Shown piece after piece: positions 1,966-17,484 of a stretch of 32,000 nucleotides of DNA; the stretch's first letter is position 1; each line of letters begins with the position of its first letter. This DNA comes from an archaeon (lineage in GTDB: Archaea; Iainarchaeota; Iainarchaeia; Iainarchaeales; CSSED10-239). The translations under genes were made by a program, and so were the position numbers. Where the stretch lies: NCBI GenBank assembly GCA_035400625.1, contig DAOMZT010000001.1:180001-212000 (forward strand). The letters run 5' to 3'. The notes beneath the pieces were generated by a model that saw only the letters and a program-made list of their open reading frames with translations, was not told the DNA's origin and searched no databases.

Positions 1966-2364
1966 ATGGCTAAAAAGAAAAAATCAGATAAACATTTAAG
2001 TTCGGATTTGTTTAAGCCAGGAAAAGTTACTATCTATGTTTATGTAATTGTTATTTGCCTTATTATTGGATTTGTAGCATTAAGTTTTGTTTCTAGCTTA
2101 AACAAAACAGACAAATACAAGACACAAGCAATTGAGGATTGTGTTGCTCTTTGTAATGAAAGGCTTGTTAAAAATGACTTGCCATCTACAGGGCCTTGCC
2201 TTTCTGAATCTATTGCTCCTGGCTGGGTTTGTGATTCTGTAAGCACTCCAAGAAACAAATATGTAGATGATCTTAAAGAAAACCAATGTGAGTCCTATCT
2301 CTCAGGAATAAACAAAAGGTTTGTAGAAGTTAGCACTAATTGTGAGTTTCTAAAGACAAACTAA
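1966..2364 (+). CDS. small membrane-anchored Cys-rich protein, unknown function
   Basis: 132 aa with a basic N-terminus, one TM helix (VTIYVYVIVICLIIGFVALSFV) and an ectodomain with 6 Cys. Its 3' end overlaps the convergent presenilin-like gene by 15 nt. Confidence 0.45.
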   Translation: MAKKKKSDKHLSSDLFKPGKVTIYVYVIVICLIIGFVALSFVSSLNKTDKYKTQAIEDCVALCNERLVKNDLPSTGPCLSESIAPGWVCDSVSTPRNKYVDDLKENQCESYLSGINKRFVEVSTNCEFLKTN

Positions 2365-3198
2365 TGTTATAACAATCACTACTAGCATCAGTGCAACCTG
2401 TATTGGCAGAGCAGGAAGTGCCTTTATTTTTGCCTTGTATTTGTCTAAGATATAGAAGGTCAAAAACAACCCAACAATTGAAGCAATCCAGATTCCAGAA
2501 ATTGGAATTAATATTTGTAATAATGAATATTTCTTAATTAATAAAGCCAAAAGACTAGAAGAAACAAGGGCAGGGACAACAAGATCTCCGCCACCAAGCT
2601 TATATTCTCTTTTTTTTGTTGGAATCAAAAACAACAATGATATTTTTTTCTTAATAATCATGTCTGCAAGAGTAATCATGTGCTTTGTAAAAAACACAGC
2701 GACAATATCATAGATTGCAAGAAGTATTAACAAAACAATTACAGGGATAATGCCTAGGCTTATGCCAATAATTGCACCAGCACCAGCAATAGCCATTGCC
2801 AAGATAATGTTGTTATACCATTTTGTGTAAATTGTTTCTTTTTTAAAGGAATATTTTATTAATAACAAAACCATAGTTGCTAGATATGCAAGAATTGTAG
2901 GCAAAAACATTGAAAAGATCAAAGACACTCCACCAAACAAAGCTAAAGCCTCAATCACTACCAGGTAATTTTGCCTTTTGAATATTTTTCTTAAAACAAT
3001 AATGATTACAGAAAATAAAATTATGTAGCCGACAATAAAAAAAGCATTCCAAACACTATTTGGATCTTTATCAACAAGTGTTAATTGCAGGTCTTGAGGA
3101 AGATAACTGATAGTCACAAAAATCGCAATCACTTGAACTAGAAAAAACAAAAACAAAAACGAAAGTAAAAATTTTCTATCCTTTAAAGCACTGTACAT
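2350..3198 (-). CDS. presenilin / signal-peptide-peptidase-type intramembrane aspartyl protease (A22 family homologue)
   Basis: Polytopic membrane protein carrying all three signature motifs in order: YD (LLAIYDIVAVF), GxGD (KLGGGDLVVPAL) and PAL (KALPALPIQ). The ORF-track start at 3225 is TTG and overlaps mcm. The first ATG, at 3198, lies 7 nt after the mcm stop. Confidence 0.8.
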   Translation of the reverse strand: MYSALKDRKFLLSFLFLFFLVQVIAIFVTISYLPQDLQLTLVDKDPNSVWNAFFIVGYIILFSVIIIVLRKIFKRQNYLVVIEALALFGGVSLIFSMFLPTILAYLATMVLLLIKYSFKKETIYTKWYNNIILAMAIAGAGAIIGISLGIIPVIVLLILLAIYDIVAVFFTKHMITLADMIIKKKISLLFLIPTKKREYKLGGGDLVVPALVSSSLLALLIKKYSLLQILIPISGIWIASIVGLFLTFYILDKYKAKIKALPALPIQVALMLVVIVITLVCL

Positions 3199-3205
3199 TT
3201 TTTTA

Positions 3206-5335
3206 TCACATTGGCTGTTGTTCAACTGGCTTAATCAGGCCAGATTTTGGCTCATAAAGCTCTCCTGATTTCTTTAATTTTAAGATGGCGTCCATTAACT
3301 TATCTCTGCTTATGTTTTGTTTTTCCATAGTCTCTGAGATTTCTGCTATTGTTACTGCTTTGCCATCTACAGTCATATCTTTAATTATGTTTAGAACCCT
3401 TTTTATAAATTGCCTTTCGCTTGTTGAGGTGCCTGTTGTTATAATGTCTATATCAATCTTTCCTGTTTCCATATCTACTGCTGTTTGCTCAAGAGAAATC
3501 TTAAAGATATTTATTGCTCTTTGTGCATCTTCAAGCTCTATTGTTGATTTTAAACGAACCTTTGCACTTGCCTCTGATAACCTTATAAGACCCTCAAGCT
3601 GTCTTGGGGTTGCTGCAAAGCTTTCTGATTTTCTGCCTAGGTCTCTCAAGTCAATATAGTAGTTTAGAATCTTTTCTGAAGCCTCTTTACTTAACTTTGG
3701 TCTAATATACTGACGAGCATATGCTACATATTTCTTGAAAATATTAGAATCTATTTTTGGAAGAACTGTGTCTTGGATTTTTTCCATTTCTTCCTTTGTT
3801 AGTTCGGTGTTTGGTTCAGAAAGTTTTTGAGCAGCCTCTTGAACATCTATTATGTGTCTTCCAAGCTCTATGTCAAGAGTTCTGTTTAGAACATCTCTAA
3901 TAATAAAATACAAATCAAATCTTGAAAGAAGAGAAAATGGCAAATCTATCTGCTCTATTGGATTCTTGAACTTATCAAATCTATTGAACTTTGGGTTTGC
4001 TGCTGCAAGAATAGAAGTATCTGCTCTAAACTTAGCATATAGTCCTGCTTTGGAAACAGAAACTGTTGCTTGGGCCATAGCTTCGTGAAGAGTGCTTCTG
4101 TCTTCATTATCCATCTTGTCAAACTCATCAATCATTGCTATTCCGCCAGAAGCTAAAACAACAGCACCGGCTTTTAGAGTCCAACCACCTTCGCCAAAGT
4201 CATCTTTAACAGCAGAAACTGTCAGACCTGCACCAGATGCACTTTTTCCAGAGACAAATATTGACTTTGGGGCAATAGTTGCTGCGTTTCTTAAAAGTTC
4301 GGACTTACCTGTAGATGGGTCACCGACTAGAAGAATATGGATGTTGCCTCTAAAGTCCTGTTTTTGAACTTTCTTTTTTACACCACCAAACATCTGGAGA
4401 GTAATTGCTTGTTTAACAATATCGTGACCATAGATCTTTGGGGCAATTGATTGAGCAAGTAACTCATAGATATCCTCTTTTTTGGCAAGCTGTTTAATCT
4501 CTTCAATCTCATCAGGAGTAATGTCAAGCTCTTCAAATTCCTGATCTACTTTTTCTAGGTGGTTTGCTATCATGTACTTATTAAACATGTTTGAATCTTT
4601 CTGTGGCTTTAGTTTTACAACGCCTGTTACAATTACCTTGTCACCAGCAGAACAAGAATTTACAAGATCATCAGAAATAAAAACCTCAACATGATTTGCT
4701 TGTTCACTGCCTTTTAAGTTTTCTATAGGTTCTTGAATTTCAAGCTTTTGGTAATCTATAAATTTGCTTTGTTCAAGGTCTAAATCAAACTCTCTAGATT
4801 TGCAGTCACACACTACTGGTTTTGTTAGAGTTTGAGATGTTTGTTTAATGTTATAAGAATTTTGACATTTTCTACAAATGAAATGGGCGTCTGTCATTTT
4901 TTGTAGCCTTTCAGTAATCTGTCTTATCATGCCTTCTGCAGACACCAAACAAGTAAGGTGCTTAGAGCCGATATCTCTAATATCTACTCTGTATTCTTCA
5001 GGGAGATTAAAGAACCTTATGTGTGGCTCAAACTTTTGATCTGTTTGCTCAAGAATTCCAACATCTATTCTTCTTAGAGCAACTGTTGCTGCTTCAATTA
5101 TTATGTTTGGGTTTTCTATCAATCTTTCTGAGATATTAAGATCATAGGCTTCTAGTTTTTTATAATCAATGTCTAGGCTTTTTTTTTCAGGATAGTTTGA
5201 TGCTAAAATTTCTATTTCTTTTTTATAGACTGCTTCTAAAAAATCAGTAAATATCGATATATATTCATCTAGAGCCAAGTTTGTTTTGCCATTTTGGCTT
5301 TCGTCAAATTCTTCTTCAAAATCAAACTCTGTCAT
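3206..5335 (-). CDS. mcm: MCM replicative helicase
   Basis: 709 aa. Zinc motif CRKCQ...CDCK, Walker A GDPSTGKS, Walker B IDEFDKM, arginine finger SRFDL. No intein. ATG preceded by aGGGGAtt. Confidence 0.95.
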   Translation of the reverse strand: MTEFDFEEEFDESQNGKTNLALDEYISIFTDFLEAVYKKEIEILASNYPEKKSLDIDYKKLEAYDLNISERLIENPNIIIEAATVALRRIDVGILEQTDQKFEPHIRFFNLPEEYRVDIRDIGSKHLTCLVSAEGMIRQITERLQKMTDAHFICRKCQNSYNIKQTSQTLTKPVVCDCKSREFDLDLEQSKFIDYQKLEIQEPIENLKGSEQANHVEVFISDDLVNSCSAGDKVIVTGVVKLKPQKDSNMFNKYMIANHLEKVDQEFEELDITPDEIEEIKQLAKKEDIYELLAQSIAPKIYGHDIVKQAITLQMFGGVKKKVQKQDFRGNIHILLVGDPSTGKSELLRNAATIAPKSIFVSGKSASGAGLTVSAVKDDFGEGGWTLKAGAVVLASGGIAMIDEFDKMDNEDRSTLHEAMAQATVSVSKAGLYAKFRADTSILAAANPKFNRFDKFKNPIEQIDLPFSLLSRFDLYFIIRDVLNRTLDIELGRHIIDVQEAAQKLSEPNTELTKEEMEKIQDTVLPKIDSNIFKKYVAYARQYIRPKLSKEASEKILNYYIDLRDLGRKSESFAATPRQLEGLIRLSEASAKVRLKSTIELEDAQRAINIFKISLEQTAVDMETGKIDIDIITTGTSTSERQFIKRVLNIIKDMTVDGKAVTIAEISETMEKQNISRDKLMDAILKLKKSGELYEPKSGLIKPVEQQPM

Positions 5336-7761: not shown

Positions 7762-7963
7762 ATTTTTCACCTAATATATATTTAAGACCCCAATATATTA
7801 AAAAGTTACCTTGTTCTAATGCCCTATTATTTTCTTTAGTTTGTTTAAAATAAAACTCTTTTTGTTCATTGGTTTTACATTTATCCATAATTTTTAGGTT
7901 TTTTGCCAAACTAATTTCTCGCATCAATGGTGCGAGTTTTATATATTTGAAAATATTTATTTG

Positions 7964-8030
7964 GCATAAATATATAATGGCCTTAGAAAAGGGGGTTGTT
8001 TTCGGGGGGGTAGGTGTCCAGTGCGAAATT
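7964..8030 (+). repeat. direct repeat copy 1 (G-rich core ccttagaaaagggggttgttttcgggggggtaggtgtccagtgc)
   Basis: Aligns by eye at roughly 85 percent identity with 8617-8682. It ends 1 nt before the toxin stop codon and is preceded by the TATA-like aaatatataa. Confidence 0.8.
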
Positions 8031-8031
8031 G

Positions 8032-8355
8032 TTACAAAAACCCTTTTATCATTTCTTCTAATTTTAAATAAACTTCTTTTCTTTTCGCCTGATTTAAATC
8101 ACAAATATGCATAATTACCATTTCTTTTGGCAAAGTAAAAATAGCGTTTAACTTAATTGTGCTATCATACAATAACCCATCAGCTTTAGTTAATTTTATC
8201 CCTGATGCTTTTTTATTACTTGTAATTGCAGCAAGAATTATATTGCCATATTCAGAAAATAAAACAAGTGCTGGTCTTACTTTAGAACTAGTGTTATCAA
8301 TAAATGGAAAATCAATAAGAACTACTTGCCCGACTTTGGCCTCAATTTTTCCCAT
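8032..8355 (-). CDS. MazF/PemK-family type II toxin (mRNA interferase-like)
   Basis: 107 aa. GQVVLIDFPF...SSKVRPALVLFSE...ILAAITSN matches the PemK/MazF SH3-like fold signature. It lies downstream of, and overlaps, a small antitoxin-like ORF. Confidence 0.75.
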   Translation of the reverse strand: MGKIEAKVGQVVLIDFPFIDNTSSKVRPALVLFSEYGNIILAAITSNKKASGIKLTKADGLLYDSTIKLNAIFTLPKEMVIMHICDLNQAKRKEVYLKLEEMIKGFL

Positions 8356-8558
8356 TTTTCATCTTCTTTATTGTCCCAGACTTCCCTCATTTTTATTTTT
8401 TGTGCATTCATCATTAATTTGAAATAATCGTCTTTTGCTGATTTAGACTTCAATAAATTTGAAATTACATCATCAAATGATTGTCTAGGGTGCATTTTTA
8501 GTTTTTTTAAATCATTTACAACAGATTTTGATAATTGTATTGTGGTATATTCTGACAT
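8322..8558 (-). CDS. putative antitoxin (small, RHH-like N-terminus)
   Basis: 78 aa. TIQLSKSVVNDLKKLK...SFDDVISNLL resembles archaeal ribbon-helix-helix antitoxins. It overlaps the toxin ORF by 34 nt and has GGTGA 7 nt upstream of the ATG. Confidence 0.6.
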   Translation of the reverse strand: MSEYTTIQLSKSVVNDLKKLKMHPRQSFDDVISNLLKSKSAKDDYFKLMMNAQKIKMREVWDNKEDEKWEKLRPKSGK

Positions 8559-8586: not shown

Positions 8587-8616
8587 AAGTTATATTTTTA
8601 AATAAATCTTTTATGT

Positions 8617-8682
8617 GCAAATATATTATAACCTTAGAAACAGGGGTTGTTTTCGGGAGGGTAGATGTCCAGTGCAAGATTT
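8617..8682 (+). repeat. direct repeat copy 2 (ccttagaaacaggggttgttttcgggagggtagatgtccagtgc)
   Basis: Same orientation as 7964-8030. It lies about 60 nt upstream of the antitoxin start and about 190 nt upstream of the ATPase ATG. Confidence 0.8.
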
Positions 8683-8798
8683 AAAAAACATTTATTTTTA
8701 AAACATTTTGATATTAATTTTTCTAATTAAAATATGTTAAAATCACGAACTTAAATATGATAATAAAAATGTCAAAGTAAAATAAATTAACAACATAT

Positions 8799-8874: not shown

Positions 8875-11181
8875 ATGAAGATTGGCAATTATACTGTTGG
8901 GGACTACATAGTAGATAATGAAGGTGGCAAGAAAAAGCTTATCTTTGATTGTAGACATTGTGTCTATAACACTTCTATTTCTGATGATCCTAGGTGTAGA
9001 TACCATGTCATGAAAACACTTGCAACAGTTGATGCTGATGAAGTTATTCTTGCAGAAGTCTATGAAAGAGTATATACTCAAAAGCAAACTTCCTTTCTTA
9101 AAGAAATGGTAGACCTGTTGCTTGATTTTGAGAACAGGGCTGTTTGGGTATCCTCTCATCTTAAAATAGAAGACATGGATTGTGATGAGTGTTATCCACA
9201 AAGGCATAATAATATTCTTAGGTTTGCTAGAGATCTTTTATCTTATGACCCTATAGCATCATATATCTCTCTTCTCAAAGAAGTAGAAAACACAAAAACT
9301 AGAGCAAATGAACAATCTGGAAGAGATTGTGAAAAATGCTTTAAAGCTAATCTTAAACATTTATTGTCTTTAAAAGAACAATATGATAAAACTGATTTTG
9401 TTAAGACATTAAAGCCGATACTTACAAAAATAAAGGACTATAATGATCTAACAGATGTTTATAAGACAGTATTTGAAGCACAAGTCAAGCCAGCTTTTAT
9501 TGGCTCTCAGCTTCTAAGAAGTGATGCAGAAAAATTTGAGTTGATAGATGAATATCAAGTGCTAACCACAAATGTTCAGATATTTAAACATCCAGAAAAG
9601 ATAGAGCTAATCTATAATATAAATCCACCAGAATATACTTTGTCACCAGACCATTATTTTGTTTTGTCAAAAACAAAAGACACTGTTGCTAATTATCAGC
9701 CAGGAAAAGTAACATTAACTTCTGGAACTGGCACAAGAAAATATTTCCAAAGAATATACCAAAGCACGATTGTTGATGTTGCTAGAAAATATGGAATTTC
9801 TTTAGCACCAGATGATGTTACTGCTCTTTCTGAAATTGTTACAAGATACACTATAGGCTATGGCATCTTGGAGATGGTATTATCTGATAGAAACATAACA
9901 GATGTCTATATTGATTCGCCAATCGGTGCCAGACCAATCTATATTGTGCATAGCAAATATGGTCAATGCCAAACAAACATACTTTATACAGATAAAGAAG
10001 CAGAATCTCTTGTTGGTAAAATGAGGGCAATGTCTGGAAGGCCTTTTGATGATGCTCACCCAATTTTAGATTATGATCTTCCAGATCTTAATACTAGAGT
10101 TGCTGCTATTGGCAGGCCACTAGCAACTGATGGCACTGCTTTTGCATTTAGATTGCATAAAGACACGCCATGGACCTTGCCACAACTGATTAATGTCAAG
10201 TCCCTAAATCCATTAGCTGCAGGAATGCTATCTTTTTTCATAGATAATAGCTCAACATTATTAGTTGCAGGTTCTCGTGGGTCTGGTAAAACATCTTTGA
10301 TGACTGCTTTAATGCAAGAGATTTTACAGAACAAAAGAATAATTGTTCAGGAAGACACTCTTGAATTACCAATAATGTACTTAAAAGACATTGGATTTAA
10401 TGCTCAAAGACTAAAAACAAAATCAGCAATTGGTTCTGATGAGGAGTCTGGCGAAGTCAAGCCAGAAGATGCATTAAGAACTGCTTTAAGACTTGGAGAC
10501 TCCGCTATCATTGTTGGAGAAGTTAGAAGTGTAGAAGCTAAGGTCTTATATGAAGCTATGAGAATTGGCGCTGCTGGTAATGTTGTTATGGGAACAATCC
10601 ATGCAGACTCTGCTTATGCTGTATGGGACAGAGTTGTTAATGACTTGGGGGTTCCAACAACTTCTTTTAAGGCTACAGATCTTGTCGTTGTAACTAAACC
10701 TATAAGATTTAAAGGTTCATTAAAGAGCCATAGAAGAGTAGTGCAAATAACAGAAGTCAAGAAACATTGGAATACCGATCCAGATGCTGAAGGTGGATTG
10801 ATTGATTTAATGACTTATGATGCAGGAAAAGATGCATTAATATTAAACGAAGATGCACTTAAAGATTCTGATCTTTTTACAAAGATTTCAACATTGTCTG
10901 GAATGTCAATTGAAGAGATATGGGATAATATCAAGCTTTTAGCTAAGGAAAAGGAATATCAGGTAGAGCTTGCTAGAGAATTAAAGTGTATGGAGTTGTT
11001 GGAGGCAGAATACACTATATCTATACACAATAAACTGCTTTTGATTAAGGAAGAGTGGATAGAAGAGTATGGCAAGATTGATTTTAATGCTATTCTTGTT
11101 GAGTGGAAGAAATGGCTAAAAGAGGATTTTGCCCCAACCATTGTAAAAAGAATAAATGAAAATAAGAAATTAGAAGAATAA
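8875..11181 (+). CDS. FlaI/VirB11/GspE-superfamily secretion or type IV filament ATPase with a long N-terminal extension
   Basis: 768 aa. Walker A GSRGSGKTS, Asp box RIIVQEDTLEL, Walker B IIVGEVRSVEA, His box GTIHADSA. About 450 aa precede the P-loop, including CRHC...C and CDEC Cys pairs. Confidence 0.85.
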   Translation: MKIGNYTVGDYIVDNEGGKKKLIFDCRHCVYNTSISDDPRCRYHVMKTLATVDADEVILAEVYERVYTQKQTSFLKEMVDLLLDFENRAVWVSSHLKIEDMDCDECYPQRHNNILRFARDLLSYDPIASYISLLKEVENTKTRANEQSGRDCEKCFKANLKHLLSLKEQYDKTDFVKTLKPILTKIKDYNDLTDVYKTVFEAQVKPAFIGSQLLRSDAEKFELIDEYQVLTTNVQIFKHPEKIELIYNINPPEYTLSPDHYFVLSKTKDTVANYQPGKVTLTSGTGTRKYFQRIYQSTIVDVARKYGISLAPDDVTALSEIVTRYTIGYGILEMVLSDRNITDVYIDSPIGARPIYIVHSKYGQCQTNILYTDKEAESLVGKMRAMSGRPFDDAHPILDYDLPDLNTRVAAIGRPLATDGTAFAFRLHKDTPWTLPQLINVKSLNPLAAGMLSFFIDNSSTLLVAGSRGSGKTSLMTALMQEILQNKRIIVQEDTLELPIMYLKDIGFNAQRLKTKSAIGSDEESGEVKPEDALRTALRLGDSAIIVGEVRSVEAKVLYEAMRIGAAGNVVMGTIHADSAYAVWDRVVNDLGVPTTSFKATDLVVVTKPIRFKGSLKSHRRVVQITEVKKHWNTDPDAEGGLIDLMTYDAGKDALILNEDALKDSDLFTKISTLSGMSIEEIWDNIKLLAKEKEYQVELARELKCMELLEAEYTISIHNKLLLIKEEWIEEYGKIDFNAILVEWKKWLKEDFAPTIVKRINENKKLEE

Positions 11182-11182
11182 A
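11145..11182 (+). repeat. 38-nt repeat copy A, the true 3' end of the ATPase gene (KRINENKKLEE-stop)
   Basis: Identical at 37 of 38 positions to 11346-11383. Confidence 0.85.
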
Positions 11183-11345
11183 TTTGTTTAATGGATTAAT
11201 TACATTTCATAGGTGTGTGCAAAACATATAAAAAGATGTCAGTTATAATTGACATGTTTTTAGAAGTGTGCAAAGTATAGTTTACATGTTTTTTGGGCGT
11301 GTTTGTTTAAAAATAACGTGATAGCAAGCAATAAATTTAGATATT

Positions 11346-11383
11346 AAAAAGAATAAATGAAAACAAGAAATTAGAAGAATAAA
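11346..11383 (+). repeat. 38-nt repeat copy B, an orphan duplicate of the ATPase 3' end
   Basis: Would encode the same KRINENKKLEE-stop. The single difference (aat to aac) is synonymous. It ends 2 nt before the stop of the convergent gene 11386-11613. Confidence 0.85.
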
Positions 11384-11385
11384 GT

Positions 11386-11613
11386 TTATTTCTTATTTGC
11401 TGTTTTGGTTCTTGCTTTTGGCTCAATTTGTATTTTGGAGAAAACAAAGATATACAATATTGGCAATATTCCGATTGTGTTTAAAACAAGCATAACTCCA
11501 AACCAAGGCATATGATCATTTTTACATGCTTTCCATAAAGCAAATCCTTTCCAAATCAAATCCCAAATTGTTAATGCAATAATAAGCCATAATAATGTGT
11601 TTTCTGAAATCAT
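11386..11613 (-). CDS. small two-TM Trp-rich membrane protein (DUF5652-like)
   Basis: 75 aa. IWDLIWKGFALWKACKN...WFGVMLVLNTIGILPILYIF resembles the DUF5652 miniprotein family as I recall it. It starts 31 nt after the stop of the 1056-aa gene, so it is probably co-transcribed. Confidence 0.55.
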   Translation of the reverse strand: MISENTLLWLIIALTIWDLIWKGFALWKACKNDHMPWFGVMLVLNTIGILPILYIFVFSKIQIEPKARTKTANKK

Positions 11614-15062: not shown

Positions 15063-15204
15063 TAAAAGTAGTCTTTGTGGGATAAAAACAAAAATAAAAG
15101 ATTTTGGACATAAAAGTATAATACTTTATACTCCAAAATAATCACTATTTTTACAAAAATAAAGTTATCATTTAGTCTGATAGCAAGCAAGAAATTTCGA
15201 AATT

Positions 15205-15254
15205 AAAAAGAAAAAGAAAAAAATTGTAAAAGGGTATTTGCCCTTTACAATTTT
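15205..15254 (-). terminator. hairpin plus oligo-T terminator of the S-layer-like gene
   Basis: Minus sense reads aaattgtaaaggg-caaata-cccttttacaattt followed by ttttttctttttcttttt. It begins about 11 nt after the stop at 15265. Confidence 0.6.
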
Positions 15255-15264
15255 GGTTTTAGAC

Positions 15265-17484
15265 TTACTCGATTGGCCAGCTTGTGATTACGTTTATTAA
15301 TTCGCTTGCTGCTGTGCCTGTATCTGCTTTTGTCCAACCAGCAACATAGATGTTACTGTTTGCGTGTTTACCTACGATAAAGTCGTCTTCTTCAACTAAG
15401 GAATCTTCAGTTATACCTTCAGCAAACTTGTTTACAAGGTGTCCACCTACTACGATTTTAGTACCTGATATTTCCATGACATCTTTCTTTAGAAGATCGC
15501 TTGGATTTACTTGAGTTTCAATGTATGGGTGATATGGGTTTGTTTGTTCTGTGTCGCCAGGTGTTGTAATTACTCCACCAATGAATAACTCGTATTTCTT
15601 TGGATCTTCAGGTAATGATACATTGATATATCCGTTAGCTATTTTTACTACTCCACCTGTTGCTGTGTATCCTTCTTGGATATCATCGTCGTCTTCATCA
15701 TTCAAGTTGAATTTCCAATTACCATTAGCATATTTTACTTTTGGACCAGTAAAGTTATCCATTACGTCTTCATCTGCTAATTTGAAATTCTTTGTATCCA
15801 TAGAGAAGTTAATATCTTTAGGTGCGGTATCTACATCTTTTATTGTAAAGATTGTTGCATTTCTGTCGCTACCTGTGTTGAAACCATCGAAAAAATCTGT
15901 TTCGTCTCCACCAGTTATTGAAAAAGTACCTTTTTTGCCTATATTTCCATCAGTTCCTTTGAATGCAATTGCCATTTCATTAGAATTTGCTAAAATTCTA
16001 AATTGGTGTGAGGTACCTGAAGTTAAATCACTTACTATGGTGACATTTGTGTCTGCTGCAACATCGTGTGCACCAGCAATGAATTCGTCTTCATCACTTG
16101 TTTCGCTTACTGTGTAGTTGCCATCAACATCTCTTATCAAATAATAGTCTTTGTTGTCAACTGCGAACTTCATTTTTGATTCTGATCCTGTTGTAAATGC
16201 TTTCTTCAAAAACAATGGAACTTCATATGTGTACTTATAATCTGACCACTTTATTGTTTTATTAGATGTTATTTCAAAGTCGTACATTGTTTCATCTGTT
16301 AGTCCAACAAACTTTACAGAACCTAAATCATTTGGGAAGTCTGCTGAATCGCCTATTTTTAATGCTGGGAAGTCTGCATTTTCTCCAACGTCACTCCAAC
16401 CATCTGTATCTGTAACTCTTATTTCTTTAAGGTAGTGGTTTGCAGTGAATGTTTCATCCCAATTAGCAGTCCATTCTCTTTCGTCCTCGCCTGTGAAATC
16501 TTCAATCTCTTCTCCGTTGTTTAATTCTAACACAGCATTACCTTGGCTAATTTCAACATAACCTTGTTGATTATCTGCATAGTTGACTTCTGTAACAGTT
16601 ATTTCAGATATCTTGCCATTGAATGTGGTTGATTTACCTTCTCTTAAGCTTTGTGATCCAACTTGTGAAGATCCTTGCTTTAACAATAGAAGAACTCTAT
16701 CTTGTGTGATTGTTGATACTTCTACGGTGTAATCATCTATTACGAAAACGCCACCCTCTCTATATATTAACTTATTTTCTTGTTCAACTAAAGTTATTTT
16801 ATCTTCAGTAATAGATCTTATCTTATATGTTTTACCCATGAATGGAATTTCTATATCGTGTTGTCCGCCAGCATTCAATGTATAATCTGTAGCTGATGTA
16901 TCTGTTACTTTAATACCTGTACTGCCTAAATTTAGGGTGTATTTTGCAGTACCTGCTGGTATTTTTGCGATTACTGCTTGGACATCTTCATCTGCCTCAA
17001 AGTAAACGTCTGAAACATTTACATCCATAGTTTCTTTTACATTTTTTAGTGTTTTCTTTGTGTCATCGTGATCGTAATATTCTATGTCGCCATCGAATAA
17101 TTTGTTGTATTTTGTATATTTTACACTGAAATCATCATCAAGGTCAAAACCCATATCATCATCATCGAACAAAGTGCCATCATCTGTTGTTGTGCCAGGA
17201 GTGCTAGGGGTTGGTACCCATGCGTCATATTGTGGGTTTCTCTTCTTTGCACTTGTTGCGATTGCGTTTGCTATGTTCTGTGCCCATTGATCGTCGTCTC
17301 CGTTTACTCCGGTAACAATACTTACTTTTGGTTGCATTGTTGAGGTTGTGTAAACATCGCCTTTTACAACTGGACCAAATGTGTCGCCACTGTTGTTACC
17401 AGCTATTGCTACGCCCAGAACACCTACACCTAATGCAAGTGCTGCTGCGCCAGCAACTACTTTTTTTACATTTATATTCTTCAT
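15265..17484 (-). CDS. probable S-layer / major cell-envelope protein
   Basis: 739 aa. Signal peptide KKVVAGAAALALGVGVLGVAIAG, a very acidic Asp/Thr/Gly-rich body without Cys, and no C-terminal TM. The C-terminal block IVVGGHLVNKFA...YVAGWTKADTGTAASEL resembles archaeal (Methanococcales-type) S-layer C-terminal domains as I recall them. It has the strongest SD in the window (GGAGGAG) and its own terminator. Confidence 0.6.
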   Translation of the reverse strand: MKNINVKKVVAGAAALALGVGVLGVAIAGNNSGDTFGPVVKGDVYTTSTMQPKVSIVTGVNGDDDQWAQNIANAIATSAKKRNPQYDAWVPTPSTPGTTTDDGTLFDDDDMGFDLDDDFSVKYTKYNKLFDGDIEYYDHDDTKKTLKNVKETMDVNVSDVYFEADEDVQAVIAKIPAGTAKYTLNLGSTGIKVTDTSATDYTLNAGGQHDIEIPFMGKTYKIRSITEDKITLVEQENKLIYREGGVFVIDDYTVEVSTITQDRVLLLLKQGSSQVGSQSLREGKSTTFNGKISEITVTEVNYADNQQGYVEISQGNAVLELNNGEEIEDFTGEDEREWTANWDETFTANHYLKEIRVTDTDGWSDVGENADFPALKIGDSADFPNDLGSVKFVGLTDETMYDFEITSNKTIKWSDYKYTYEVPLFLKKAFTTGSESKMKFAVDNKDYYLIRDVDGNYTVSETSDEDEFIAGAHDVAADTNVTIVSDLTSGTSHQFRILANSNEMAIAFKGTDGNIGKKGTFSITGGDETDFFDGFNTGSDRNATIFTIKDVDTAPKDINFSMDTKNFKLADEDVMDNFTGPKVKYANGNWKFNLNDEDDDDIQEGYTATGGVVKIANGYINVSLPEDPKKYELFIGGVITTPGDTEQTNPYHPYIETQVNPSDLLKKDVMEISGTKIVVGGHLVNKFAEGITEDSLVEEDDFIVGKHANSNIYVAGWTKADTGTAASELINVITSWPIE

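Follow-up and report, generated by a model that had tools for sequence, protein, structure and literature searches.

Why do the last codons of a conserved archaeal gene stand twice in the DNA, once within the gene and once as an orphan beside its converging neighbor? The question is raised by a stretch of 32,000 nucleotides (nt) from an Iainarchaeales genome (GenBank assembly GCA_035400625.1, contig DAOMZT010000001.1, positions 180,001 to 212,000), below called the window. The gene encodes a FlaI/VirB11-type ATPase of 768 amino acids (aa; 8875..11181, plus strand; Pfam T2SSE, E 3.6e-20) and is followed by a 163-nt filling, a second copy of its own 38-nt end and then a converging gene for a 75-aa DUF5652 membrane protein (11386..11613, minus strand; Pfam DUF5652, E 1.1e-23). 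We think it probable that the duplicated 38 nt arose as the target duplication when DNA was inserted, long ago and without a recombinase, where the two genes converge, and that pop-out of the inserted DNA and deletion of its open reading frame (ORF) followed later.

A first-pass annotation had reported a duplicated 38-nt gene end with one synonymous mismatch, and this description is accurate: 11145-11182 and 11346-11383 form a direct repeat with 37/38 identical positions (38/39 for 11144-11182 and 11345-11383, if the preceding t is counted). No second match to the tail arose in 100 dinucleotide-preserving shuffles, and the genome holds no further copy of the repeat. The left copy, A(L) (11144..11182, plus strand), provides the functional last 11 codons and the stop of the ATPase gene, while the right copy, A(R) (11345..11383, plus strand), is an orphaned tail that starts with the 8 nt aaaaagaa and finishes 2 nt short of the stop codon of the convergent gene. 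Both encode KRINENKKLEE-stop, and their sole mismatch, a single-nucleotide polymorphism (SNP) with T at 11163 on the left and C at 11364 on the right, turns the codon AAT into AAC, a synonymous change in the ATPase reading frame; T is the state found in other species of the genus. Owing to the position of the SNP, the two tail copies of the window allele have no 31-mer in common.

The same annotation had suggested looking for alleles that lack or enlarge the insert, and both kinds occur among same-species assemblies. Exact-protein look-ups with the DUF5652 protein, the ATPase and the protein encoded by the longer filling led us to about 30 public contigs (JGI, ENA, NCBI and Logan; several assemblers) that represent three states of the slot. 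At least 11 records (from runs such as ERR6175493 and SRR5007313) carry the short allele of the window, with the 163-nt filling, T in the left copy and C in the right one. Another 14 records (from runs such as SRR27449286 and ERR6222548) have a long allele in which a 1443-nt filling with one AAA_14/DUF4143 gene lies between the same repeats, here with C on the left and T on the right. The empty allele, without filling and with a single tail copy that carries T, is known from one record, Logan contig L054 (ERR6175487), where the stops of the ATPase and DUF5652 genes are 3 nt apart and the 1400-nt flank on either side equals that of the window at every position (100%). Among the short-allele contigs, the 1400-nt left flank equals that of the window in all and the right flank matches fully in most, with 5-12 differences in three; the long-allele contigs are about 1.9% divergent from the window in the ATPase gene. 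A metagenome pattern scan added one further contig, also with the long allele, and look-ups with the S-layer protein returned contigs of the short lineage only. One mosaic strain (L043/L095; JGI 3300049640) is 1.9% divergent from the window on the ATPase side and only 0.36% on the side of the DUF5652 and Ig-like genes, and because of this difference across the junction, recombination breakpoints appear to cluster where the ATPase and DUF5652 genes meet.

The arrangement of the empty allele is also found outside this species. G008 is the most distant member of the genus, and there a DUF5652 homolog converges on the ATPase gene with a 6-nt overlap at the ATPase stop. This shows that an ATPase tail lying directly against DUF5652 is a natural arrangement and that the native state had the two stop codons directly against each other. 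The adjacency that the right copy retains is thus the only arrangement in L054 and G008. The first-pass annotation had held that its integration idea would fail if the duplicate proved to be the 3' untranslated region or terminator of the converging gene and conserved as such. The right copy does represent the native 3' flank of DUF5652, but this follows from the insertion and is no alternative to it. The antisense strand of the ATPase tail is T-rich and lies directly past the DUF5652 stop in every allele, suggesting that it is probably the terminator of the DUF5652 gene. The left copy is now the coding one, and the right copy probably serves solely as 3' flank and terminator of DUF5652.

What had been inserted is evident from the long allele. 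Its filling contains only one gene, on the minus strand, with a 431-aa product that matches AAA_14 (1.7e-38), DUF4143 (2.2e-27) and, over its full length, the PADLOC model PDC-S01 (2.5e-111). The COG1373/PDC-S01 family (AAA_14 plus DUF4143) consists of ATPases fused to a PD-(D/E)XK domain, is abundant and enriched in archaea (PMC3424549; PMC12988326), and ranks among the commonest candidate defence genes of prokaryotes (PMC12988326). By these matches, the product of the long allele would be an ATPase fused to a predicted PD-(D/E)XK nuclease domain, and its gene is a candidate defence gene. One lineage carries a PDC-S01 cassette with its own promoter between two ATPase tails.

In the window lineage the gene is gone, and we found no AAA_14/DUF4143 gene anywhere in the window genome. 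The filling that is left aligns over its nt 35-157 with the last ~125 nt of the long filling, directly upstream of the PDC-S01 ATG, and this orphan promoter/operator (11217..11339, minus strand) is identical to the upstream region of the intact gene at 120 of 123 nt (97.6%). It includes a TATA-like box (11226-11235, minus strand) that lies ~21-33 nt before the ATG in the long allele and in homologous cassettes, a putative operator palindrome ATGTCA-N8-TGACAT (11236-11255, minus strand) and a second TATA-like/TTTGCAC unit (11266-11279, minus strand), all of them kept in the intact allele as well. Palindromes of the form TGTCA-N6-8-TGACA or TTGACTAGTATACTAGTCAA (TTGAC-type) occur in 5 of 10 regions upstream of DUF4143 genes (long allele, G003, G007, G018 and G019). 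These palindromes, together with a helix-turn-helix-like stretch in the PDC-S01 protein (a weak match to Pfam HTH_11), suggest that DUF4143 genes may be autoregulated. Antisense transcription from the orphan promoter into the ATPase tail may still take place. A structured RNA or tRNA identity was rejected for 11217-11339, which folds no better than shuffled sequences (z -0.17) and has no match to Rfam, in gathering or E-value mode, or to tRNA models.

It is this homology that decides the nature of the internal repeats. The first-pass annotation had listed gtgtgcaaaacata (11215-11228), gtgtgcaaagtata (11266-11279), the pair gacatgttttt/tacatgttttt and the palindrome at 11236-11255, all of which are present, and had read them as signs of a remnant resembling a miniature inverted-repeat transposable element (MITE). 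Because they lie in a region 97.6% identical to that upstream of an intact gene, they are promoter and operator parts conserved in that gene's allele rather than MITE ends. A MITE or other DNA transposon was rejected: we found no terminal inverted repeats in the filling, no short target duplication and no multiple copies, and 38 nt far exceeds the target duplications made by transposases. An assembly artefact would have to account for the same junctions in MEGAHIT (k141, k127 and k119), SPAdes, JGI, NCBI and Logan assemblies of independent samples, and for two copies that share no 31-mer. Sub-repeats and palindrome notwithstanding, a transposon remnant with target-site duplication or an artefact of assembly is hardly credible as an explanation.

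The two ends of the filling have other sources. On the left, the first 6 nt after the ATPase tail (tttgtt) are common to the short and long alleles, and we infer that the ~20 nt after them are a relic of an older VapBC occupant. This segment (11183..11207, minus strand, spacer included) resembles the 3' end of a VapC (PIN) gene (..VINP..), with a 14-nt exact match at 11190-11203 to the VapC end of G006. The 14-mer by itself is not significant (E 0.067 genome-wide); homology is proposed because the VapC gene end of G006 abuts the ATPase stop at the same offset as the relic in the window, and a third species has the same adjacency. No VapBC-filled allele was found in this species, look-ups with VapC having yielded the species of G006 and one third species, both without tail repeats.

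On the right, the filling ends in a short sequence that points to the neighborhood from which the cassette may have come. A genome-wide search for copies of the insert, proposed in the first-pass annotation, found none in the 818-kb genome except for its last ~27 nt, E1 (tgatagcaagcaaTaaatttagatatt; 11319..11345, no strand assigned), which recur at 15178-15204. This second copy, E2 (15178..15212 with the adjoining aaaaagaa; no strand assigned), lies just past the hairpin/T-run terminator of an S-layer gene (15265-17484, minus strand), so that E1 is a copy of sequence past that terminator; in the long lineage a 20-nt core of E1 and E2 is identical at 20/20 positions. Both copies are followed by aaaaagaa, which is the start of the orphan tail at E1 and the start of the terminator T-run at E2, and the junction between E1 and the orphan tail thus sits at an 8-nt microhomology. 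A homologous E module follows the S-layer gene in G007, and relatives have AAA_14-type genes immediately behind their S-layer gene: in G013 the AAA_14 gene is all that separates the ATPase gene from the S-layer gene, and G009 and G007 are similar. In strain L094 (JGI 3300010347, native positions 2337-3767) an extra ATPase_2/AAA_14/DUF234 gene lies directly behind E2, between the S-layer gene and a large Ig-like gene. Many assemblies (L089-L094) break within ~100 nt of either end of the S-layer gene, as expected where strain-variable DNA begins, and the length of the Ig-like protein varies among strains (1056, 1140 and 1314 aa).

These sources of the filling bear on another explanation, a local event without foreign DNA. 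The duplication would then come from slippage or tandem duplication with an ordinary spacer, or the right copy would have been kept as the terminator of DUF5652, which agrees with its T-rich antisense strand at the DUF5652 stop in every allele and with the lack of other copies in the genome. However, tandem duplication should have doubled all 201 nt of the unit instead of 38 nt. Of the 163 nt, moreover, 123 correspond to what lies upstream of a gene carried by sister strains, ~20 nt are the VapC relic and 27 nt are copied from 3.8 kb away. A purely local origin is therefore very improbable.

For an insertion without a recombinase, the following course would account for what is seen. On the simplest reading, some sister haplotype of the slot between the ATPase and S-layer genes would once have had the cassette, with its promoter and E, past the S-layer terminator. 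The 8 nt aaaaagaa would have provided the microhomology at which E became attached to the beginning of the 38-nt tail, and homology within the ATPase gene would have resolved the opposite side; this would amount to insertion-duplication or homology-facilitated illegitimate recombination. With a break 38 nt before the stop codon, the tail would have been copied and both converging genes would have kept their ends. The tail copies would since have acted as short recombination substrates; a crossover between them would pop the filling out and give the empty contig. If pop-out and re-entry used crossovers on opposite sides of the SNP, a single process would turn C-left/T-right into T-left/C-right, while plain mutation would need two hits at the SNP site to give the reversed pair. 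Deletion bias would then have removed the ORF in the lineage of the window, leaving the promoter/operator, the E1 end and the older VapC relic of ~20 nt.

A check for further duplicated 3' ends, also proposed in the first-pass annotation, turned up two more cases of this anatomy when the same genome was scanned for direct repeats (minimum length 28 nt, spaced by up to 8 kb). One is ftsY, whose final 58 nt recur 1527 nt downstream (C3:75086-75143 and 76613-76670) around an AbiEi/AbiEii pair, with 2 mismatches, both synonymous, with different stop codons (TGA versus TAA) and with the right copy 22 nt from a converging periplasmic-binding-protein gene; relatives have a different neighborhood at ftsY. 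In the other case, an ERCC4/XPF-type nuclease gene has its final 33 nt repeated 678 nt downstream (C1:365495-365527 and 366173-366205) around the gene of a 198-aa Cys-rich membrane protein, and the right copy abuts a converging 117-aa gene. Across the three sites, 3 of 4 repeat mismatches are synonymous, which are too few to carry weight.

Relatives of the window genome add further cases around DUF4143 genes, of which there are up to 7 per 0.7-0.9 Mb genome in the family. In G003 (L133; C13 1265-1293 and 2654-2682) such a gene lies between 29-34-nt copies of the tail of a CDC48-like gene, with stops TAA and TGA, and the uninterrupted CDC48-like/converging gene pair of the window genome (C1:240134-240139) represents the empty site for this cassette. 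In G018, which belongs to another genus (L031; G018:C2, oriented positions 8005-8557 and 10329-10882), a 555-nt direct repeat brackets a DUF4143 gene. Each copy takes in the final 311 nt of the G018 version of the ATPase gene, the spacer after it and the 3' end of a pilin-like gene that converges on it. This repeat is a mosaic, with 3/312 differences in the ATPase part and 23/243 in the rest (p 2e-6), and the enclosed gene is 83% identical to its counterparts in G012/G021, a divergence like that of the ATPase, by which it looks vertically inherited. Given the mosaic repeat and a gene as diverged as the ATPase, the repeat is younger than the residence of the gene and built from two diverged sequences. 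Altogether, 7/30 DUF4143 loci are flanked by direct repeats of 27-115 nt (E <= 1e-5), including protein tails with stops and a tRNA-like 3' end, compared to 1/156 similar-sized ORFs of the window genome (p 1e-5, with related genomes not independent of each other). Among 69 ORFs around the ATPase gene in relatives, only three DUF4143 genes, an AbiEi gene and an extra T2SSE ATPase are repeat-flanked. The flanking repeats are local sequence, different at every site (27-555 nt across analogous sites), and the cassette ends have no common motif.

Several more sites were noted along the way. Further DUF4143 genes flanked by repeats of 27-115 nt are found at L119, L129, L131, L132, L137 and L144 (G014, G017, G019, G012, G016 and G008, respectively), and repeat-flanked sites lie at L025 11034/12441 and L036 9266/10775. 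Contig C108 of G016 has a length of 1717 nt with identical 55-nt ends and is either a collapsed repeat or a circle. In G008 the initial ~25 nt of tmk occur on both sides of the extra T2SSE ATPase gene.

The first-pass annotation had interpreted the duplication as an integration footprint, and the longer and empty alleles bear out its core, an insertion scar around a decayed remnant of inserted DNA, while the att/integrase system that it had envisaged finds no counterpart in any integrase. In such a scenario, an element with an attP site matching the last 38 nt of the ATPase gene would have integrated and later lost its integrase and most of its cargo, leaving attL and attR on either side of a defence gene (long allele) or a stub (window). 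Direct repeats that restore the 3' end of the target gene and the existence of both an empty site and a longer allele would agree with this, and toxin-antitoxin and defence genes are typical survivors in decayed elements. Sites with tRNA-like sequence point in the same direction: one DUF4143 cassette of G017 is flanked by a tRNA-like 27-mer, and the window genome has tRNA-like 3' ends duplicated 5.8 kb apart (C3:44322-44351/50146-50175) and 0.87 kb apart (C1:134916-135005/135783-135872), which are possibly classical integration scars, or else paired tRNA genes. However, no integrase or recombinase was found within or near any allele on ~26 contigs with short or long filling, and the window genome encodes only one Xer-like tyrosine recombinase, 41 kb away. 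The cargo of the long allele is the AAA_14/DUF4143 gene alone, its neighbors are the T2SSE ATPase, DUF5652 and an Ig-like surface protein, with no mobility gene, and no relatives of the cassette gene were found on viral contigs. At 10 analogous cassettes the repeats vary both in sequence and in length, without any crossover core in common, and the mosaic G018 repeat covers parts of both converging genes. Finally, a fixed crossover point of one element in one target does not predict a T/C pair that is reversed between lineages, and it leaves the E1/E2 pair unexplained. Integration by an integrase is thus unlikely. An integron cassette was rejected as well, with no attC-type boundary structure conserved among cassettes, no fold signal and no integrase.

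A rather different idea is that the cassette drives its own insertion, as has been proposed by Kobayashi's group for restriction-modification units, for which Furuta et al. suggested double-strand breakage as a common property (PMC2853133). The PD-(D/E)XK domain of PDC-S01, a predicted nuclease (PMC3424549; PMC12988326), would break tight gene junctions, and host repair would copy the cassette in, leaving a long target duplication. The enrichment of flanking duplications around DUF4143 genes and their high copy number in such small genomes speak for this. On the other hand, the same footprint surrounds cassettes without any such gene (AbiE, the 198-aa membrane protein and the extra T2SSE ATPase of G008), and the DUF4143 gene of G018 looks vertically inherited while its repeat is far younger. 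A self-driven insertion consequently appears doubtful, about as much as one by an integrase.

Insertion without a recombinase, the explanation that we favor, has to be weighed against several observations that count against it. Its empty state is seen in one k=31 Logan contig, and in a sample with both short and long alleles a chimeric path via the shared 39-nt node is conceivable; a k=31 graph of the short allele alone cannot yield L054, since the 31-mers that join T and the DUF5652 flank are absent there, and no long-allele contig is on record for the run from which L054 comes. The reversed SNP could reflect two hits at one site (about 1-2% by chance), and an 8-nt microhomology in A-rich DNA is weak evidence alone. 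The left 28 nt of the short allele, with the VapC relic, are not from the long allele, and the history therefore holds at least one step beyond our model. A repeat-free donor haplotype (ATPase/PDC-S01/E/S-layer without DUF5652) was not found among the contigs of this species, and contigs found by exact protein matches showed no strain polymorphism at the ftsY and ERCC4 sites. The control for the association of repeats with DUF4143 genes comes partly from a different genome, and the related genomes are not independent. Searches for donor-site homology of the G003 and G008 cassettes gave marginal matches only.

Beyond this locus, single-gene defence cassettes, above all PDC-S01, might form a class of recombinase-free mobile elements in small-genome archaea and bacteria, a generalization that we put forward as speculative and rather improbable as a whole. 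Targets would be opened either by the nuclease that the cassettes encode or by some host process at tight gene junctions, and repair would bring in a copy of the cassette together with a duplication of 27-555 nt, sparing both neighbors. This duplication would then serve as a short-homology site for pop-out and re-entry into sister genomes, a cycle of which full, decayed and empty alleles and the flipping SNP would be the record. If true, a simple recombination route would explain the patchy, multi-copy distribution of PDC-S01 in DPANN genomes. For annotation, the lesson is that orphan last codons beside a converging gene mark a former cassette slot and not a regulatory element or MITE.

The wider surroundings of the slot fit a stable gene order on one side and a variable one on the other. 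The window genome (818 kb, 30% G+C, five contigs) is archaeal, with MCM, RPA and archaeal ribosomal proteins as neighbors, and the ATPase gene is present in all 40 related genomes (orthologs in 41 of 41) and thus a conserved core gene. Upstream of it, synteny is kept in relatives (MCM, RPA and sometimes a toxin-antitoxin pair), whereas the content past its stop is species-specific (VapBC, Bro-N, AbiE or AAA_14/DUF4143 genes). In the window, a MazF/VapB-type pair lies upstream of the ATPase gene, and genes for an Ig-like surface protein and the S-layer protein lie downstream.

The first-pass annotation had described the ATPase gene as flanked on both sides by duplication junctions, but these are not of one kind: the upstream toxin-antitoxin unit is bracketed by a different repeat, a ~100-nt G-rich gene-head module (window 7952-8058 and 8604-8706) with a TATA-like box followed by GAAA..GGGGTTGTTTTCGGGGGGGTAGGTGTCCAGTGCGAAA, of which the genome has 11 copies. 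The nine copies elsewhere include C1:60571, 65545, 123258 and 160601, C2:59872 and 91180, C3:91958 and C5:8541, and at C3 an inverted partial copy of the module pairs with it as a 16-bp hairpin. In relatives the module also stands upstream of Bro-N and other accessory genes, and in G011 it is contained in the 221-nt repeats on either side of an AbiEi gene. A link between this module and the GTGTGCAAA sub-repeats of the filling was considered and rejected, as an nhmmer profile of the 11 copies gave matches only at E 3.7 and E 38.

How does this slot compare with known systems of gene acquisition? Integron cassettes and clusters of attC sites without an integrase have been reported in Archaea. 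Like the units described here, integron cassettes are compact (promoter plus gene or gene only), often encode toxin-antitoxin or defence functions and are stacked in a variable slot; unlike them, our units have no attC-like imperfect palindrome or IntI, and their repeats copy the local target and not a site borne by the element. Integrases that insert elements into the 3' ends of genes leave an attL/attR duplication, and derivatives without an integrase are known as cis-mobilizable elements (CIMEs). The likeness is close in that repeats restore the end of the target gene, the displaced original end stays by its old neighbor and the filling can leave precisely. The differences are the missing integrase, the lack of a core common to analogous sites, repeats of 27-555 nt and a crossover position that is apparently variable.

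Homology-facilitated illegitimate recombination has been described in naturally transformable bacteria in the laboratory. It and Campbell-type insertion-duplication are reportedly the subject of work by de Vries and Wackernagel and by Prudhomme et al., both from 2002. These processes resemble the course proposed here in joining DNA by homology on one side and a few bases of microhomology on the other, in duplicating the shared segment and in being reversible between the copies; they differ in that we deduce the process from the sequence of an uncultured archaeon, with 38 nt of homology.

Regarding the cargo, the gene of the long allele matches the PDC-S01/COG1373 family over its full length, whereas the window genome keeps the promoter only. 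A repeat-flanked, movable layout of PDC-S01 is not mentioned in the papers that we found on this family.

The closest parallel is the "insertion with long target duplication" named by Kobayashi's group for restriction-modification units (Furuta, Abe and Kobayashi 2010, PMC2853133), and the window locus fits this class as a decayed relic. The class has been on record since 2000 without a mechanism (an earlier record, Nobusato et al. 2000, is cited in PMC2853133), and it bears on the spread of defence genes without recombinases. Its traits are the lack of a mobility gene, a repeat of more than 30 bp, in many cases reaching over a neighboring gene's 3' end, and a genome with a single-copy empty site; such gene units are repeat-flanked far oftener than average genes, and the mechanism, for which double-strand breakage has been suggested, is described as unknown (PMC2853133). 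No archaeal case was retained in the screen of Furuta et al. (PMC2853133). At our locus, the repeat of 38-39 nt exceeds 30 bp, also around the 1443-nt allele, and there is no mobility gene; a single-copy empty site is seen in L054, as one short-k contig, and the abutting gene pair also in G008; and the long allele carries a candidate defence gene, PDC-S01, which is lost in the window. Common to both are thus a small defence-type unit without a mobility gene and a target duplication of more than 30 bp that looks site-specific but is variable, often over the 3' end of a neighbor. The cargo differs, being a PDC-S01 ATPase-nuclease and not a restriction-modification unit, as do the archaeal host and the state of the window, which retains only a decayed relic. 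What our locus adds is this relic, a series of three allele states in one species, a reversed SNP and a second repeat pair, E1/E2, with junction microhomology, which points to a nearby donor slot as the place of origin of the cassette.

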